From Bdellovibrionota bacterium (GTDB lineage: Bacteria; Bdellovibrionota_C; UBA2361; JBGSMV01): DNA of 64,000 nt. The notes under the pieces are model-generated. The model was not told the origin of the DNA, made no database searches, and saw only the letters and a program-made list of their open reading frames with translations. The stretch spans positions 64,001-128,000 of the forward strand of contig JBGSMV010000015.1 in assembly GCA_041739995.1 (NCBI GenBank), read 5' to 3'. The translations under genes were made by a program, and so were the position numbers. Below are positions 40,884 to 47,790 of the stretch, piece by piece (the first letter of the stretch is position 1; the number at the start of each line of letters is the position of its first letter).

Positions 40884-41903
40884 CTAGAGAATCCAAGGCA
40901 GGGTGTGCCCTTTGCGGAGCATCGATTCAGTCACCGCCACTAAATCTCCTCGATCCTGTCCAAGGATATAGCCGAGAGACTCCCAATAGGGATCTGTGAC
41001 GGTGTGAGATCGGTTGGTTCGAATACACTCAGTGATAGTAAAGGCGCTCAACCATTGGAACTGTTCTGCTTCGGAAGGATCGGTAGGCAGAGCTGGGGTC
41101 GCATAACGAACTGTACCAAAGGCTGCATCTCGTCCACATCCAGCGGCAGAAAGAACCAAGGCACTTACTTGAAGTGGCTGCACTCCATACACCGCCTCTC
41201 CCACTGCACTAATCTCTGCGCCGGAAGCAAGCATTTCGAGTGCTCTACGAGCGTCATCGAGTTCTCCAGAGGCGATGAGGAGGGCTAAGCCAGAGCGTCC
41301 TGCGAAACCTGCAAGCATACCTCTACCGGCTCCGAACTCGTGATTCCTTTCTCCGACCAAGAATCCAATCTGTGCGCGCAATATTGCGTCGTCAAGAATC
41401 GGTCGCCAAATGCGTTCGAACTGGCATGCGGCGAGACGTCGACAGACACCGTGAATTACCGCGACCGCCGCGATCACATCGGGCGAGAGAATTTCAATGG
41501 CGCGATGGATGCTATTGACCTTACGTCCCACTCCCAAGAACGGGTCACTTGCTGCGGCAAAGACGAGTCGTCGCAGTCCAATTAGCCCGCCATCAGTAAG
41601 TGTTTTCGTTTGCCCTGTAGAACTGAATACATAATTGCTTAAGCGCCATATGAACCATGGCACTGGTCTGAGCTCTTGCACGATTTCGCGTGCCCGCGTC
41701 CAACTTTTCGCACTACGCTCATCCTTATTTTTTTGGAATTCGAGAACTTCCTTCTGGGTCCCCTCCAAGGCCTTATCAAACTCTTGGTCAAACGAGCCGG
41801 CGTCCGCGGGCATCTCTGGTTCAACCATCAGTGCCGCAGGATCTGCGTCTTCGCGCTCCTTGAGCACCAAGTCTGATAGAATTTCTTCCCCCTGACCTTT
41901 CAT
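40884..41903 (-). CDS. Hypothetical protein with degenerate HDOD-like domain
   Basis: Likely start MKGQGEE; VNSIHRAIEILS...IW...AILRAQIG...GMLAG...G.LAL...EAVYGV...SALVL resembles HDOD. Confidence 0.55.
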   Translation of the reverse strand: MKGQGEEILSDLVLKEREDADPAALMVEPEMPADAGSFDQEFDKALEGTQKEVLEFQKNKDERSAKSWTRAREIVQELRPVPWFIWRLSNYVFSSTGQTKTLTDGGLIGLRRLVFAAASDPFLGVGRKVNSIHRAIEILSPDVIAAVAVIHGVCRRLAACQFERIWRPILDDAILRAQIGFLVGERNHEFGAGRGMLAGFAGRSGLALLIASGELDDARRALEMLASGAEISAVGEAVYGVQPLQVSALVLSAAGCGRDAAFGTVRYATPALPTDPSEAEQFQWLSAFTITECIRTNRSHTVTDPYWESLGYILGQDRGDLVAVTESMLRKGHTLPWIL

Positions 41904-42564
41904 GCGTAGTTTAGCTCCAACGAACAGGCGCTGATTGAGTTCTAATCGGCATAATGTCGAAAAATCTGGACCTCCGAAGCGATGAAGATCGTGCAACTCC
42001 GCCCGTCCCTCTAGGAAAAACGAGCACGCCCCAATGGGACACCCAATCTCCCCTGCTCGCCCCACCGCCACCCGCGTCTCCGGAAGCTGCCCCAGCCTCC
42101 AATAGCTGGCCACCCACGCTTGCCAACCCCGCTTCTGCCGAAAACCCTTGGGCAAATCGACTCGTGGGCCGATTCGCCGACACCCATTGACCGCGCTCCA
42201 AGCGCTCCTGAACATCTCTGTAATTTCAGCACACTAAGCCGTGGTTTTGGGAAAGAGAGGATCCCTACCCGTCACTCCGCTTCTATAGCGGTCTGTATTT
42301 ACTACGAAAATTAATAAATCCTTTCTTCCTTCACTCGCGTCTTATAGACATAAGAGCAACTTGAGCTCTAACTGCTTGTGTTTGCTATATAAGTGAAGTA
42401 GTAACGGAAGAATTTCCGAGCATTTGTATCAAGCTCGTTTCGTGGTCTGAAGTATTCGAGAGCCGTTTTTCATTAGAGTGCCCCACCCTTTTGGGATTCT
42501 CTAGCAGAAAATTAGCCTTGAACTAACTGGGTCCGAGTCGAGTCTTTTTCAGCGAGATCCATGT

Positions 42565-42944: not shown

Positions 42945-43042
42945 GTCCCTCTTGGAATGTCCCTCTTGGAATGTCCCTCTTGGAATGTCCCTCTTGGAAT
43001 GTCCCTCTTGGAATGTCCCTCTTGGAATGTCCCTCTTGGAAC
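42945..43042. repeat. 14-bp tandem repeat x7 (VNTR)
   Basis: GTCCCTCTTGGAAT x6 perfect plus GTCCCTCTTGGAAC. Confidence 0.95.
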
Positions 43043-43232
43043 TTATATCACCCAATTGTGTAGCGAATCTGCGGCGCTTGGGTGCGCGCTGGTGTCGAGC
43101 CTCTTTGAGCTGCGCCGCTGCTTGCAATAGAGCACCTCTACCCACATCGCCGCAACTTCGGAGCGCCCTCAAAGCACCTGGGTTTCAAATGGATTTGCCT
43201 CGAAGCGAGGTGGTCCTCTAAGCTCAAGGCCT

Positions 43233-43478: not shown

Positions 43479-44752
43479 AGTAAGGACAGCTCATTCTTCG
43501 CCTCACTTCTTAGCCAGCCTTGGTCGCTCTCTGTTTTAAACAGCCCTCTCGGTATTCCACTCATCCATAAATACGATCTCCTAGTATGAAAAAATGAAAA
43601 TGAAGAAAAAAGGGCGGCTAAGCGAGAAGGGTCAGTGCCAAGGCAGGCGCTTGGTTGGCTTGAGCAAGAACAGCCGCACCGACTTGAGTAAGGATTTGTC
43701 TCCGAGCAAGCTCAGCGCTGTCCTCCGCCACATCAGAATTGGTAATTCGCGCGTTCGCCGCGTTGTAGTTTTCGACTCGCGAGAAAAGCGCCCCTAGGGC
43801 TGCGCCAAGTCGGCTTTGACTGCTACCGATGGCTCCCCTTTCCAATGCAAGACGACGCATAACGCCCTCAAGCAGATCTAAGGCGTCGTAAGCACCTTGC
43901 TGAGTCGTGATGTTGAGTCTCTGAATCGTCGTCGATTCCTGCGTATTGGCGAGATATATTGAGTTGGAGGAAATTAAATCTGGCACCCCATCATTATTGA
44001 GATCCACCGCCCACGAACTGGCCGCGGGAGCATAAATCTCTGAATTCGCAAAGGTCCCGTCTCCTCCACCATAAAAAGCCTTCGCCTTTCCGCCAGCATC
44101 CCGCGTCAGGAGATCTAGTTTCCCGTCACCATTCATATCAATGATAGATAGGACTCCCAAGCCTCCCGTGCCGACATTCACCGCTGAATGAAAAGTTCCA
44201 TTGCCGCTTCCGCTGAACGTGTGAACACCGCCCGCTGAGATTGCCGCTGCGTCAAGGATGCCGTCGTTATTGAAGTCGCCTAATTGAACATTGCTGATGC
44301 CGATGACCGCAGGAGTGATGAGAGAATTCCCCGCCTGAAAAGTTCCCGTTCCAGTCCCAAGCGCGCTCACCAGAGAGGCGCCCGACGCATAGGCGATATC
44401 TAACTTGCCGTCGCCGTTAAGATCCCCGAGTGCTAGGGTTCCTGCGGCAGCAGCGCCGGTGAGCCCCGTGGCAAATGCGGTGCCAAAGGATCCGTCGGCA
44501 GCGCCAAGTCTGGCAGAAATAACACCGGCCGTTGAGACGCTTACAATATCGACAAGCCCGTCCCCATTGAGATCTCCGATTTCTAACGCATTCACCGCTG
44601 AGGCACTAAGGAGGGTGGAGTCCATAAAGGTACCATCCCCATTTCCCAACGCGACATAGAGTCCGCCACCTCCAACACCATCGTTATTTCCCTCGATGAC
44701 ATCAAGAAAACCATCCCCATTTAGGTCAGCTAACCGCGAAGTCGAACTCAAG

Positions 44753-44779
44753 CCGCGCGCTTAACGACGAAGACACTGC
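44753..44779. repeat. 27-bp perfect direct repeat, copy 2 (at the flagellin frameshift)
   Basis: CCGCGCGCTTAACGACGAAGACACTGC, identical to 45290-45316. Confidence 0.95.
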
Positions 44780-45289
44780 AACTCCGGCCTGAAAAGTCCC
44801 GTCTCCGTTCCCGAGATGCGCATAGAGCGCTCCGGCATCATCGGTTACAATCAGATCGATATGACCATCGTTATTGAGATCTCCTGAGGTCCCGTTGGCC
44901 CCTCCCGCAGGAGTGCTTAAAGCGGAACTCGCTGCGGAATTGAAGCTGAGGAGTATATTGCGAGAGAGTTCTTCGCCAATTCTAGCATTCAGGCGCTCAG
45001 AGTCTCCGAACCCAAGCTGCAATGCCAACTCCCCAAGTCGTCCATCGATTAGTACTCGCCCATTAAAGGTAGTAGTAGCAACAATACGATTGAACTCGTC
45101 TGTAAGCGCGGTCGCTTCTTTATCATTTGAAACGCGCTGAACCCGCCCTAACGACCCGTTTGCGGAGCTGTTCGCCAATTCCTGAAGTCGCGTTGCAATG
45201 CTAGAAAGTTGTGAGAGTGCAGAGTCTGCGATATTTAAGGCGCTGATGCCGTCGTTCGCATTGCGAATACTCTGTGAATAAACTCGGCT

Positions 45290-45316
45290 CCGCGCGCTTA
45301 ACGACGAAGACACTGC
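45290..45316. repeat. 27-bp perfect direct repeat, copy 1 (flagellin N-terminal AVSSSLSAR)
   Basis: CCGCGCGCTTAACGACGAAGACACTGC, identical to 44753-44779. Confidence 0.95.
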
Positions 45317-45519
45317 GAGCCCAGCAGCATCATCTGAAGCATTATTGATACGCAGACCAGACGACAGTCGCTGCAGCGCAGAACCCATCGCACTCTCGTT
45401 TTGAGAGAGCATGCGCTGAGCTACAAGCGCATTGATGTTACTGCCAATACTTGTCGTCAAAAGTACTCCGTTACCACAACGACCTCTTCCCTCTCCTTAG
45501 GGTTAGATTCTTACTAAGG

Positions 45520-45546
45520 AAATCGTCTACTTATACCGCAGGCTTA
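45520..45546 (-). promoter_or_regulatory. Candidate sigma28 (FliA)-like promoter for the minus-strand flagellin
   Basis: Minus strand TAAG-N15-GACGATTT versus consensus TAAA-N15-GCCGATAA, about 60 bp upstream of the TTG start. Confidence 0.45.
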
Positions 45547-45941
45547 ATGAATGGGGGCTAACCCCGCGGTTAACGTTTGAGCTGCTCGACCCTTCCTAAG
45601 ATATTCCCCTAGCTAACCTGGGGTTACAGAAATCATTGGGACGCACATTCAGTGGTGGTCCGAGTCTCAGCGGGTCGAGAATGGTTGGGCGCCCCAAGCG
45701 GGCTCCTCACTCCGAACGAGGGACGCGTCAACGAAGAATCGTGATTGCTAAGTATTTCCCCCACTAATGCCGGATTGAGAACAAAAATAGCCCCCGATTG
45801 TCCAGACACCGAGGACAGAGGTCGACTTAACAAGAGCATAGGAATTGCACTTAGCTCCTGAGCCCCGAACGGAGTCAGTGGGGCGTCATTCACACTCGAT
45901 GTGCCTCAAGGTGCATAGAAGGGGTGGCGCCAGGAGGCAGT

Positions 45942-47790
45942 TTGCCGATAACACTTGGTCAAAACATCTCTTCCCTTAACGCTCGCCGTTACCTCGACGG
46001 TAGTACTGCTCTATTTTCTGCTGCATCAGGAAGACTTTCGAGTGGTCAGCGAATTTCCACTCCCTCGGACGATCCAGCCGGTCTCGCGGTCACTGCGGCT
46101 CTCTCTACAAAGTCACGAGTGCTCGGGCGAGCAGGCCGTAACCTTAGTGATGGAATTTCGGCTCTGCAGACGGCAGAAGGAGGCCTTACCTCAATCCAGA
46201 CGTTGCTGGTTCGCATGAACGAACTTGCTGAACAGGCGGCGAATGGGAGTCTGAGCTCGGTTCAACGCAAGAGTCTTGACGAGGAGTTTCAATCTCTCTC
46301 TAAGGAAATTCAGCGTGTATCACGTACCACCTCTTTTAATAGGATCTCATTACTTTCTGGACAGCGCAGTGCGCGAGCTCCTAGTGCGATGACCGCCACT
46401 GGCCTTCTGGGCCCTGCAGGCCTCTCCGGTGATGGGCGCTATGCGGTTACCGCGACGGCTGCCGACGGAGTGCGATTACATGATCTTCAAACGGGCGCCA
46501 TTACCACTGTAGATGCTGCGGCCTCGAATGCGAATACGGTGATGGCGAGCAATGGCGACATTGTTTACTCGAAAGGTGGCCAACTCTTCCATTTCAGCCG
46601 TTCGAGCGGAACAATCTCGCAAATTACCGCCTCACTTGACGCTGACCCATTCCTCGGACTTGCCATTAGTGCCGATGGCACGACCGTAGCCTTCACTACA
46701 ACCACCAGATATACAAATGAAGGGAAGGTAAGCGATGGCGGTGTAAGCAGCGGAATGAACATCACTCTGCTAAATCTTGACACCGGCGTACTCAAGGTAC
46801 TGGATGGAAACTCTTATTTAGGCAGCGACGGCTTCCGACTCAGCAATGATGGGTCAAAGCTGCTCTTTTACCAAGACGCCGGGCTATGGCAGGATATCTA
46901 TTATGTTGACGAAACTATCCTGACCCCTCGCAATATTGCGACACACAACGTCCCAGGATTTATTCCAATTATCGGAGGAGTTACCGACGATGGTCGCGCC
47001 TTCTACGGCGCCTTCGATGACTTCGTTCAATTCACAGGCAACCTTGAACTAATCGAGTACAATGGAAATACACAAACCAATTCACTTGTTCACGCCATCT
47101 CCTACTCAGGACCTGATATATATTCTATAGCCTCAATTACTGTAGGGGCCGACAACAACACACTCCAAATTCTGAGTGGCCATAACTACACAGGCGAAAA
47201 TACCTCGGAGCATATTCAGGCCTTCAAATTTGACCTCAGTTCTCGACAGTTCACTCAACTTACGTCTTTCACCGGAGAACTCTCTGTATCCGCAAGCCCG
47301 ACCTCCCTTCTTTCCGGGGACGGGAGTCGATTGGTTTATCTTGGTGCTGGATCACGAGCCTTTGCAGTCGATCTATCTCCAGAATCTTCCCCGCTAGACA
47401 TCGAAGCGGGTTTCGGTTCCGCCGGTCGCTTACTCGCCTCCTTGCCGGGCTTAGAGGGCGGGATCCGCGGTATTTGGGGGATACGCCGTGAAATCGCAGC
47501 GGGGAGCATGGGGTGCGCTTGATTCAACTCGCCAAGCTATCGCCAGGGTGGCAGAAATTCTTGGCGATCTTGGGTCATTCTCAAGCAGACTTCAGGCAGC
47601 TGCCACGGTCACCTCTGCCCAGGAAACGGAAATCTTGGCGGCTAGAAATCGTATCACCGACATCGATGTGGCACAGGAGAGTGCGGCACTGCTTCGCTCC
47701 AGAATCGCACAAGATATTGGTGTCGCCATTCTCTCTCAGGCGAACCTCCAACCGCAGATTGTGCTCACCTTGCTGCAAGCAAGACAATAA
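45942..47790 (+). pseudogene. fliC: Flagellin with a TolB/PD40-like beta-propeller insert; +1 frameshift at TTTGGGGG (47473-47480)
   Basis: AGGAGG-TTG start; RLSSGQRISTPSDDPAGLAV...RNLSDGISALQTAEGGL; repeats SGDGRY, ISADGTTVAF, LSNDGSKLLF, LSGDGSRLVY; C-terminal flagellin in ORF 47488..47790 (RNRITDIDVAQESAALLR...LSQANLQPQ). Confidence 0.88.

Follow-up and report, generated by a model that had tools for sequence, protein, structure and literature searches.

Frameshifted propeller-bearing flagellin genes in an uncultured Bdellovibrionota lineage and the cargo-flagellin family to which they belong

Flagellinolysin (FlaMP) is a flagellin that carries a foreign domain in its middle region and, according to the available portions of its descriptions, is encoded beside the structural flagellin forming most of the filament (PMC5595980, PMC7643111), of which it is itself a minor component (PMC7643111). 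It carries a zinc peptidase, whereas the flagellins described here carry non-catalytic propellers and reach up to tens of paralogues per genome. VCBS, FG-GAP and PD40 domains are absent from the available part of the PMC5595980 supplement, whose 61-domain list may be incomplete there.

The arrangement of flagellin N, propeller and flagellin C found here is already catalogued, as cluster #55 “WD40-repeats” of Fields et al. 2024, to which the accessible text devotes one sentence, with no function (PMC11532411). FG-GAP_3 occurs in at least 16 of its 40 rows (16 among the 35 listed), at lengths of 545-670 aa and mostly in vaguely labelled MAGs, the others coming from Paenibacillus, Desulfovibrio, chlamydiae and clostridia. 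Per-genome expansion, lineage and two insertion sites are not described in the accessible text of that paper, and our literature search, with most subscription journals outside its reach, found no paper describing the flagellin expansion or a second insertion site.

In Vibrio, the surplus flagellin paralogues FlaE and FlaF keep the flagellin core and are exported by the flagellar channel, as we propose for the present family, but they lack a propeller, bind exopolysaccharide and were shown outside the filament, according to the available text (PMC6692518). The FlaE/F case shows that display does not follow from core conservation combined with a promoter of FliA type.

Two divergent flagellin genes with different propellers

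The window, the whole 64,000-nucleotide stretch analysed, belongs to a genome (G000) of an uncultured class whose records are labelled Bdellovibrionota/Bdellovibrionales. It holds a divergent gene pair, each gene combining flagellin N, a seven-bladed propeller and flagellin C, with an FG-GAP/integrin-type propeller in the minus-strand gene and a TolB-like one in the plus-strand gene (Table 1). Profile searches of the ORFs confirm the two flagellin-framed genes of a preliminary description, with Flagellin_N at 117-118 bits (curated cut-off 26.6) and Flagellin_C at 53-57 bits (cut-off 23) in both, and the two genes retain 72 and 69 of 104 columns invariant in canonical flagellins. Start-to-stop spans of 1843 nt (minus, TTG at 45460) and 1849 nt (plus, TTG at 45942) equal 613 and 615 codons plus a stop and one extra base each, in agreement with the read-through lengths of ~613-615 aa given earlier; no single open frame joins the core halves in either gene. 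The flanking genes, ihfA/SNF2 on one side and lexA-recA-like genes on the other, bear out a location outside any flagellar operon.

Table 1. Features of the two flagellin genes, in window positions
Feature	Position	Strand	Basis
Minus gene, 3' ORF, different frame: six FG-GAP blades and flagellin C core	43618..44751	-	
Flagellin_C match, minus gene	43624..43878	-	profile search
FG-GAP (integrin-alpha-like) seven-repeat propeller region, ends approximate	43957..44917	-	profile matches; paralogue model
Minus gene, 5' ORF, TTG start: flagellin N core, D1 beta-hairpin, first FG-GAP blade	44726..45460	-	
27-bp exact copy of 45290-45316, at minus-gene frameshift	44753..44779	-	bridged by X1 and X2 contigs
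Flagellin_N match, minus gene	45041..45445	-	profile search
Source copy of 27-bp repeat, inside flagellin N core	45290..45316	-	
Sigma-28-type promoter-like site, minus gene, 16.3 bits	45520..45548	-	trained matrix
Weaker sigma-28-type site, plus gene, 10.9 bits	45800..45828	+	trained matrix
Plus gene, 5' ORF, TTG start 45942: flagellin N core, TolB-like propeller, displaced D1 hairpin	45942..47522	+	
Flagellin_N match, plus gene	45960..46364	+	profile search
TolB/PD40-like seven-bladed propeller, inserted before D1 hairpin	46386..47372	+	AlphaFold model, structure and profile matches
T/G homopolymer run at plus-gene frameshift	47472..47481	+	bridged by X1 contig
Plus gene, 3' ORF, different frame: flagellin C core	47488..47790	+	

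In the minus gene, the 5' ORF matches Flagellin_N (E 8e-34) and one FG-GAP_3 repeat, and the 3' ORF matches FG-GAP_3 (E 1e-42) and Flagellin_C (E 3e-14). The DxN/DxDG..D motifs number 1 + 6 across the two ORFs, confirming the seven counted before, and the gene type fits cluster #55 by Pfam architecture and length (FG-GAP_3, about 600-670 aa). Its closed seven-bladed fold was seen on the predicted structure of an intact paralogue, P0001 (pLDDT 91.5, complete helical core), which matches the integrin alpha propeller best (Z 32.6, rmsd 2.5, 323 aligned). Weak Pfam matches to TcdB_toxin_midN lie below the cut-off and reflect FG-GAP-like repeats, and the likeness to Tc toxins among the Foldseek matches is limited to the propeller; a toxin identity was rejected. 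A signature pattern scan for relatives of this gene gave 5 loci and 0 flagellins.

In the plus gene, the ORF at 45924-47522 matches Flagellin_N (E 4e-34) and the 3' ORF Flagellin_C (E 3e-15). The preliminary description had counted about seven S(G/A/N)DG repeats; the strict S.DG motif occurs just 4 times and the PD40 match reaches 18.3 bits against a gathering cut-off of 20.9 (29.8 bits in a relative, P0185), yet the AlphaFold model of this ORF (pLDDT 80.9) contains seven strand groups and resembles seven-bladed propellers (best Z 21.3, rmsd 4.2, 300 aligned). Seven-bladed propellers are predicted for the plus ORF and for the paralogue P0001, the broken minus gene itself not being the modelled protein. 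TolB has six blades and an N-terminal alpha/beta domain. The insert matches TolB by profile (E 5e-12) and shares the S-x-D-G turns of TolB/PD40 propellers, but it has seven strand groups, no TolB_N family match and is fused into a flagellin, and identity with TolB of Tol-Pal was rejected. ESM Atlas neighbours are PD40 clusters (0.89-0.92, recognition below threshold). More closely related are large proteins with several propellers, which also bear domains of extracellular type (Calx-beta, cadherin-like, SdrD_B, DUF11 or dockerin); scanning metagenomes with the insert as query yielded no relative.

Some databases call such proteins “FlgL-like”, an identity rejected here: the window ORFs reach 62-68 bits against a FlgL cut-off of 127, and the true FlgL of this genome lies after flgK on another contig (C36, 152 bits). 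Pfam profile search detected no metallopeptidase domain of the flagellinolysin kind in the window genes, nor did profile search find any peptidase family in cargo flagellins; no Rfam family was detected in the window. Among the listed sequencing runs that contain this DNA none was of RNA, a result that says nothing about expression.

Contigs of sequencing runs X1 and X2 span the minus break and an X1 contig spans the plus break, with the same letters and no gaps. Because the frameshifts recur in run contigs, the breaks are present in the DNA and both window copies are pseudogenes, unable to work as written. The bridging contigs, found among the best 32 of 48 records, all come from one study that may include the source sample, at a depth of 4-6, which leaves some room for assembly error; nevertheless, errors behind the frameshifts or fusions are extremely unlikely, as the contigs show neither gaps nor differing letters, frameshifts occur in 0 of 54 other loci, and the best 120 homologues of one paralogue, 119 of them from other records, all have both flagellin ends with FG-GAP. 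Elsewhere no break was seen in orthologues: P0131 is whole, and L193 keeps its frame open to the contig end. Broken loci amount to 9 of 18 for the cargo set compared with 3 of 54 other loci. As for the head-to-head layout, the 481-bp spacing and a sigma-28-type site on each gene might suggest a dedicated two-gene module whose products cooperate or swap inserts, a most improbable reading that is already largely refuted: a sister grouping of the two cores is rejected (p-AU 7e-6; 32 rows, simpler model), the inserts have no detectable homology (hhalign probability 0.1%) and occupy different sites, none of the 13 other TolB-type loci that extend about 1 kb upstream has a partner, and the minus gene's orthologue in genome G001 has a different upstream neighbour. 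The side-by-side arrangement is incidental, and the pair is not a special unit.

Insertion sites, selection and repertoire of the family

In a profile scan, FG-GAP propellers follow the D1 beta-hairpin in 34 of 40 sequences and TolB-like ones precede it in 19 of 20, the plus gene's own site being placed by its predicted structure and an orthologue alignment. On the core tree, built without three rows whose N cores were short and four of no assigned class, FlgL among them, cargo labels change 10 times (minimum 6, shuffled mean 72). Cargo class tracks core lineage. Together with the non-sister cores, these results contradict the earlier proposal that propellers are interchangeable between the two types, and suggest that propellers were captured at two sites, on at least three separate occasions. 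Exchange among paralogues inside one cargo class has some support: in 5 of 6 paralogue pairs dS is higher for the insert than for the core, with codon bias a possible cause, and one pair has a mosaic insert. The preliminary description had asked whether core and insert phylogenies would reveal shuffling, and whether the architecture was already characterised; catalogued it is, and possible signs of exchange appear within a class and not between classes.

Cargo cores retain a median of 68-77% of the 104 canonical-invariant columns, thus losing a quarter to a third of these residues, and have longer branches than canonical cores. The cores are under purifying selection, with dN/dS of about 0.04-0.16 compared with 0.21-0.29 for inserts (6 paralogue pairs, 5 with finite insert dS), and dN/dS over these 6 pairs gave no sign of domain-wide positive selection on inserts. 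In genome G013, paralogous cores are 89-96% identical; gene conversion as the sole cause was rejected, since four-fold sites are only 0.22-0.65 identical (seven pairs), so that purifying selection does much of the core similarity. Across 109 sequences the calcium-loop residues are invariant or nearly so. The calcium loops average 1.2 bits at constant length, while the propeller's b-c and d-a loops differ in length and reach a mean of 3.0 bits, and the variable face of the propeller is the non-calcium face.

The variability of the top loops may be neutral.

A relaxed sigma-28 pattern, loosened after inspection of upstream regions in this genome, finds a match in 12 of the 107 upstream regions taken from other genomes and in 2 on the reverse strand. 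A matrix trained on those 12 matches recognises 10 of 22 flagellin upstreams in this genome, both window genes included and 12 left without a match, compared with 62 of 694 background regions (p 2e-4). The strict sigma-28/54 pattern gave no sigma-28 site in these upstreams, k-mer enrichment gave nothing clear, and sigma-70 and terminator scans stayed at chance level.

The genome has 24 Flagellin_N and 24 Flagellin_C matches. In the phylum, 113 of 124 genomes bear a flagellin (median 8 matches; 48 genomes with 10 or more), 12 of these 113 having 20 or more, and full-length FG-GAP flagellins occur in 56 of the 124, some with at least 10 and 53 of them with FliD. None was found in five control genomes (titled Bdellovibrio, Halobacteriovorax, Oligoflexales, Oligoflexia and Polyangiales). 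Cargo flagellins are scattered in genomes that also hold short canonical flagellins and a flagellar machine; here, an flg rod/ring/hook-junction operon includes FlgM-like, CsrA and FliW genes, and two FliD, FlhA, MotB, FliA and FliS are encoded besides. The modular flagellin display first proposed is supported as regards two propeller kinds framed by flagellin, many paralogues and a full apparatus, but the window copies are frameshifted and inserts are not swapped between types.

Proposed filament display and its alternatives

From sequence, we read the window genes as cargo flagellins that lost function recently and belong to a birth-and-death family, whose members would act as minor filament subunits with varied non-catalytic binders (probability roughly 0.55). 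Intact members pair a full D0/D1 core with a non-catalytic seven-bladed propeller, captured independently at two sites. They may be transcribed late by FliA (sigma-28), exported unfolded via the flagellar type III system and, as in flagellinolysin, incorporated as minor subunits among canonical flagellins. Judged by strand order, the variable face would look away from the filament and the calcium-loop face would lie against it, such that the paralogue set might offer varied binders, with surfaces, matrix or prey cells as putative ligands. Copies would duplicate, recombine inside their class and disappear, this genome apparently shedding about half its set. Filament display appears the likeliest role, the many copies probably providing varied sticky or protective filament coatings.

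Alternatively, the flagellar channel could be a mere export route and the cargo flagellins free, calcium-stabilised proteins of the biofilm matrix or surface, like FlaE/FlaF or Bap1. This is unlikely, despite the FlaE/F precedent in the available text (PMC6692518), the extracellular-type relatives of the TolB-like insert, the greater divergence of cargo cores than canonical ones and a biofilm metagenome as best-matching run for this DNA. The FG-GAP insert also has a weak sequence match (E 2e-4) to PDB 6mlt, which we take to be the propeller protein Bap1. Strong purifying selection, however, covers the entire core, the D1 helices as well as the two terminal D0 helices, which would exceed what an export signal needs, and a lattice estimate from filament geometry leaves space for a propeller on every subunit. 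Improbable as well is a filament coat without ligand binding, in which propellers would either make the filament thicker or keep its conserved core out of reach of grazers, proteases or flagellotropic phages. In its favour, the outer face is variable with no conserved pocket, gain and loss are rapid, and the available text of PMC7018530 has outer-domain diversity usually ascribed to such selection. Against it, many paralogues are retained together, scattered and with promoter-like sites of their own, no layout of invertases or silent cassettes was seen near cargo loci, and the capture of propeller domains on at least three separate occasions suggests a role for the fold itself.

Beyond subunit display, prey recognition by cargo flagellins is put forward as a hypothesis. 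In its broadest form, which is possible but doubtful, the filament would be a combinatorial recognition array throughout an uncultured, possibly predatory class, comprising up to tens of FliA-controlled flagellins from at least three captures at two sites, each with its own prey- or surface-binding face, and renewed by duplication, recombination and loss.

Relation to known recognition systems

The pair alone amounts to two pseudogenes, and its importance lies in the family. At least 20 flagellins per genome with folded repeat domains on a conserved core would suggest that an unstudied lineage employs its flagella for more than swimming, and a propeller before the D1 hairpin indicates a second tolerant flagellin site, which bears on filament evolution and engineered display. 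Because isolated propellers can be expressed and screened without culture, the recognition hypothesis is directly testable.

The seven-bladed fold is shared with the integrin alpha chain, here without a beta-chain partner; with the fungal lectins PVL/PAL/AAL2, PVL/PAL being the best sequence matches (E 2e-6) and also among the Foldseek matches; and with Streptomyces UmbA4, likewise among those matches, here without a toxin particle. The shared fold indicates no ligand. The PVL binding loop is the W..H.R-bearing loop between blades; a PVL-type GlcNAc lectin was rejected, as the window protein has gaps or unrelated residues opposite this Trp/His/Arg loop.

In B. bacteriovorus, prey contact occurs at the non-flagellate pole and the filament is sheathed and built of six flagellins; the Bdellovibrio control genome has short flagellins only. 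By analogy alone, a conserved scaffold with paralogous, variable outer domains recalls Bdellovibrio MAT fibres (PMC13689555), Myxococcus Kil pilus Tips (PMC12075869) and umbrella-toxin lectins (PMC13274773), which use other scaffolds and are experimentally tested, whereas cargo flagellins are known from sequence. If it exists, the recognition array would be the flagellar counterpart of these three systems.

Two broken flagellins and their predicted folds

The minus and plus genes of the window are both broken flagellins, the span of each exceeding a whole number of codons by a single base. As the preliminary description had proposed, both carry flagellin ends, with Flagellin_N and Flagellin_C matched in each, and the seven DxNxDG..D-type motifs announced for the minus gene were recovered as seven DxD/NxDG..D motifs; of the roughly seven S(G/A/N)DG-type repeats ascribed to the plus gene, only four strict S.DG turns were found, the number seven holding for the strand groups of its model. 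This AlphaFold model of the plus ORF (30-row alignment, pLDDT 80.9) matches seven-bladed propellers among known structures (Z 21.3, rmsd 4.2, 300 aligned). For the fold of the minus-gene type, the intact paralogue P0001 (109 rows) stood in for the broken gene, and its model (pLDDT 91.5) combines a full helical core with a propeller of seven blades, the nearest known structures being integrin alpha chains (Z 32.6, rmsd 2.5, 323 aligned). No homology between the FG-GAP and TolB-like window inserts was detectable on comparison. The locus lies among ihfA, SNF2 helicase and lexA/recA-like genes.

Features of the window locus (window positions)
Feature	Position	Strand	Content
Minus gene, 5' ORF	44726-45460	-	Flagellin_N and one FG-GAP repeat
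Minus gene, 3' ORF	43618-44751	-	FG-GAP repeats and Flagellin_C
Plus gene, 5' ORF	45942-47522	+	Flagellin_N and propeller
Plus gene, 3' ORF	47488-47790	+	Flagellin_C
27-bp copy	44753-44779		exact; at the minus-gene break
Source of 27-bp copy	45290-45316		N-core DNA of the minus gene
Tandem repeat, ~42 nt	near 42950-43050		short; downstream of ihfA; a repeated peptide in spurious ORFs
443-aa ORF	40884-42215	-	no match in Pfam or NCBIfam

Among 32 of 48 records, all from one study, the minus break is bridged without gaps by contigs of two sequencing runs (X1 and X2), and the plus break by one X1 contig. The latter sits within a T/G run, and an intact 629-aa orthologue of the plus gene (P0131) is 68% and 70% identical to its two halves. 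The minus break coincides with the 27-bp copy, which overwrites part of blade 1. The 27-bp sequence occurs only twice in the genome (G000), and the minus-gene orthologue in genome G001 has unrelated sequence at this place; the frameshift was likely caused by a template switch. Across 40 other FG-GAP flagellin genes, exact repeats reach 21 bp at most. Both lesions look recent, since the 3' halves of both genes remain open.

Cargo type, core lineage and the status of the pair

The interchange of propellers proposed in the preliminary description did not hold between cargo types, as insertion sites differ and cargo type tracks core lineage. The canonical D1 hairpin profile scores higher before the insert in FG-GAP (34/40), DTN-type (13/13) and ~190-residue (17/17) flagellins, and after it in 19 of the 20 TolB-like ones. 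A quick tree built on 123 cores unites all 21 TolB-like rows (SH-aLRT 96) and, in another group, 22 of 23 canonical rows (SH-aLRT 100); taken together, the cargo labels need 10 changes (minimum 6, shuffled mean 72). Sequence comparison gives signs of exchange within one cargo type: G013 paralogues have cores up to 86-95% identical with inserts at 35-42%, dS is higher in the insert than in the core for 5 of 6 pairs, and one G065 pair carries a mosaic insert. Cores are under purifying selection (dN/dS ~0.04-0.16), cargo cores retaining a median of 68-77% of canonical-invariant columns.

We rejected the head-to-head pair as a unit. A sister relation of the two cores is rejected (p-AU 7e-6, 32 rows), the minus-gene core grouping instead with its G001 orthologue (SH-aLRT 98), whose upstream neighbour is a radical-SAM-like gene (MiaB-like, by eye), and none of 13 other TolB-type loci has a divergent flagellin within ~1 kb. 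The window pair is a chance meeting of two pseudogenes; the features first described are real, these being cargo-bearing flagellins, and the preliminary reading of them is partly right. The flagellin-propeller architecture is already catalogued and occurs beyond this class, because the part of Fields et al. 2024 covered here (PMC11532411) lists a cluster #55, "WD40-repeats", of 40 members, at least 16 with FG-GAP_3. No propeller term was found in the portions covered of Eckhard 2017 (PMC5595980, including one supplement) and Hu and Reeves 2020 (PMC7018530), and in the literature searched neither the expansion of cargo flagellins nor their second insertion site nor their promoters was described. 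The family behind the pair is large, unstudied and testable.

The cargo-flagellin family

Counting paralogues, as had been suggested, gave 24 Flagellin_N and 24 Flagellin_C matches in G000. Sorted by manual reading of the search results, these comprise four canonical flagellins of ~287 aa (one of them cut in two by contig ends), one short flagellin and FlgL, nine FG-GAP and two TolB-like propeller loci, five loci with a ~190-residue middle, two with a degenerate FG-GAP middle and two N-only remnants. Among themselves, the FG-GAP cores of G000 share no more than 43-55% identity, and stand-alone FG-GAP proteins are nearly absent (two weak matches). Nine of 18 cargo loci are broken against 0/6 non-cargo loci (Fisher p 0.05); in other loci, frameshifts number 0/54 and stops 3/54 (p 8e-5 against the 9/18), three further loci having been left out because the hits lay antisense to flagellin genes. 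As far as the tests went, G000 has a complete flagellar system, with rod, rings, FlgK/L, FlgM-like, CsrA, FliW, two FliD, FlhA/B, MotB, FliA and FliS.

Several neighbouring observations concern this repertoire. Two tandem FliD cap genes adjoin a canonical flagellin (L010:380-3607, contig C6); most of the class has 2-3 FliD per genome, one large genus mostly 1, and specialised caps are possible. Canonical loci L009:6570-9670 and L010:6589-9003 are flanked by RepA-like, lytic transglycosylase and type IV coupling protein genes. Flagellins of 430-460 aa with the ~190-residue middle (L011, L012, L013, L016 and some ten G001 loci, G001 having at least 10 copies) match no Pfam family in that middle, as judged on the G000 copies. 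A short divergent flagellin, seen as a single copy per genome (L017:4637-5431 on G000 contig C32, L175, L200, L212, L219), has a 35-residue middle in four of the five, and its cores neighbour the TolB-like clade (SH-aLRT 91). Beyond the window, two ~300-aa ORFs (C32:88330-89247, C42:11695-12543) give weak partial flagellin-N matches.

The GTDB phylum set holds 124 genomes of one class, presumably UBA2361; as these are kin and incomplete, the counts are descriptive. Flagellin occurs in 113 (median 8 matches; at least 10 in 48, at least 20 in 12, and 38 in one genome), and full-length FG-GAP flagellin in 56, some with at least 10, FliD being present in 53 of these 56. The TolB-like insert profile matches loosely in 27 of 91 order genomes and strongly in 11, partly by construction, since 10 of the 11 supplied profile rows. 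Most of the named homologues and loci carry the label of Bdellovibrionales, Bdellovibrionota or Deltaproteobacteria MAGs, and none of five control genomes of other groups had such cargo flagellins. A third, DTN-rich propeller type was seen in other genomes (L204-L212 of G065, L126, L130, L132); it is built of SADG and DTN repeats, and its insertion site follows the hairpin. G065 has ten such copies with cores 81-93% identical, L205 and L208 sharing a common recent tract within the propeller. In G013, from which 18 full-length copies were retrieved, tandem arrays hold up to four FG-GAP flagellins (L161, L163, L164, L167).

Proposed expression, export and display

Upstream of many cargo genes lies a TAAG-N15/16-[GC]xCGAT site, which resembles the sigma-28 consensus. 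It occurs in 12 of 107 upstreams of other genomes against 2 reverse-strand controls, and a matrix trained on other genomes, its seed pattern loosened after the G000 upstreams had been viewed, scores 10/22 G000 flagellin upstreams against 62/694 in the background, both window genes being positive. The short divergent flagellins tested in other genomes have the site in 3/3 cases. Calcium-type loops are constant in length and sequence and opposite-face loops variable (opposite-face loops 3.0 vs calcium-type loops 1.2 bits; in the TolB-like type, opposite-face loops 2.6 vs 1.8 bits).

Cargo flagellins would be expressed late under FliA, exported through the flagellar channel and incorporated as minor subunits, as suggested by their frequent GTG/TTG starts and the flagellinolysin precedent (in the part of PMC7643111 covered). 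The variable propeller face may point outward, because the linkers exit at blade 7, through its c-d gap, and a rough lattice estimate leaves space enough for a propeller. The PVL sugar-binding loop is absent from the FG-GAP insert, no catalytic family was found in cargo flagellins, and the TolB-like insert has its relatives among large proteins that bear domains of extracellular type.

B. bacteriovorus touches prey at its non-flagellate pole (PMC13689555, in part). Elsewhere in G000, a Tad locus of Kil-like layout (L241:3608-12874, C47) encodes CpaB, an ATPase and two T2SSF, followed directly by an FHIPEP (SctV/FlhA-like) gene, and a non-flagellar type III-like locus (L242:6542-12574, C5) holds sigma factor, YscJ-like, SctV-like and TPR genes. 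By analogy, these two loci recall the pairing of Kil with a needleless T3SS in predators, as described in the part of PMC12075869 covered here.
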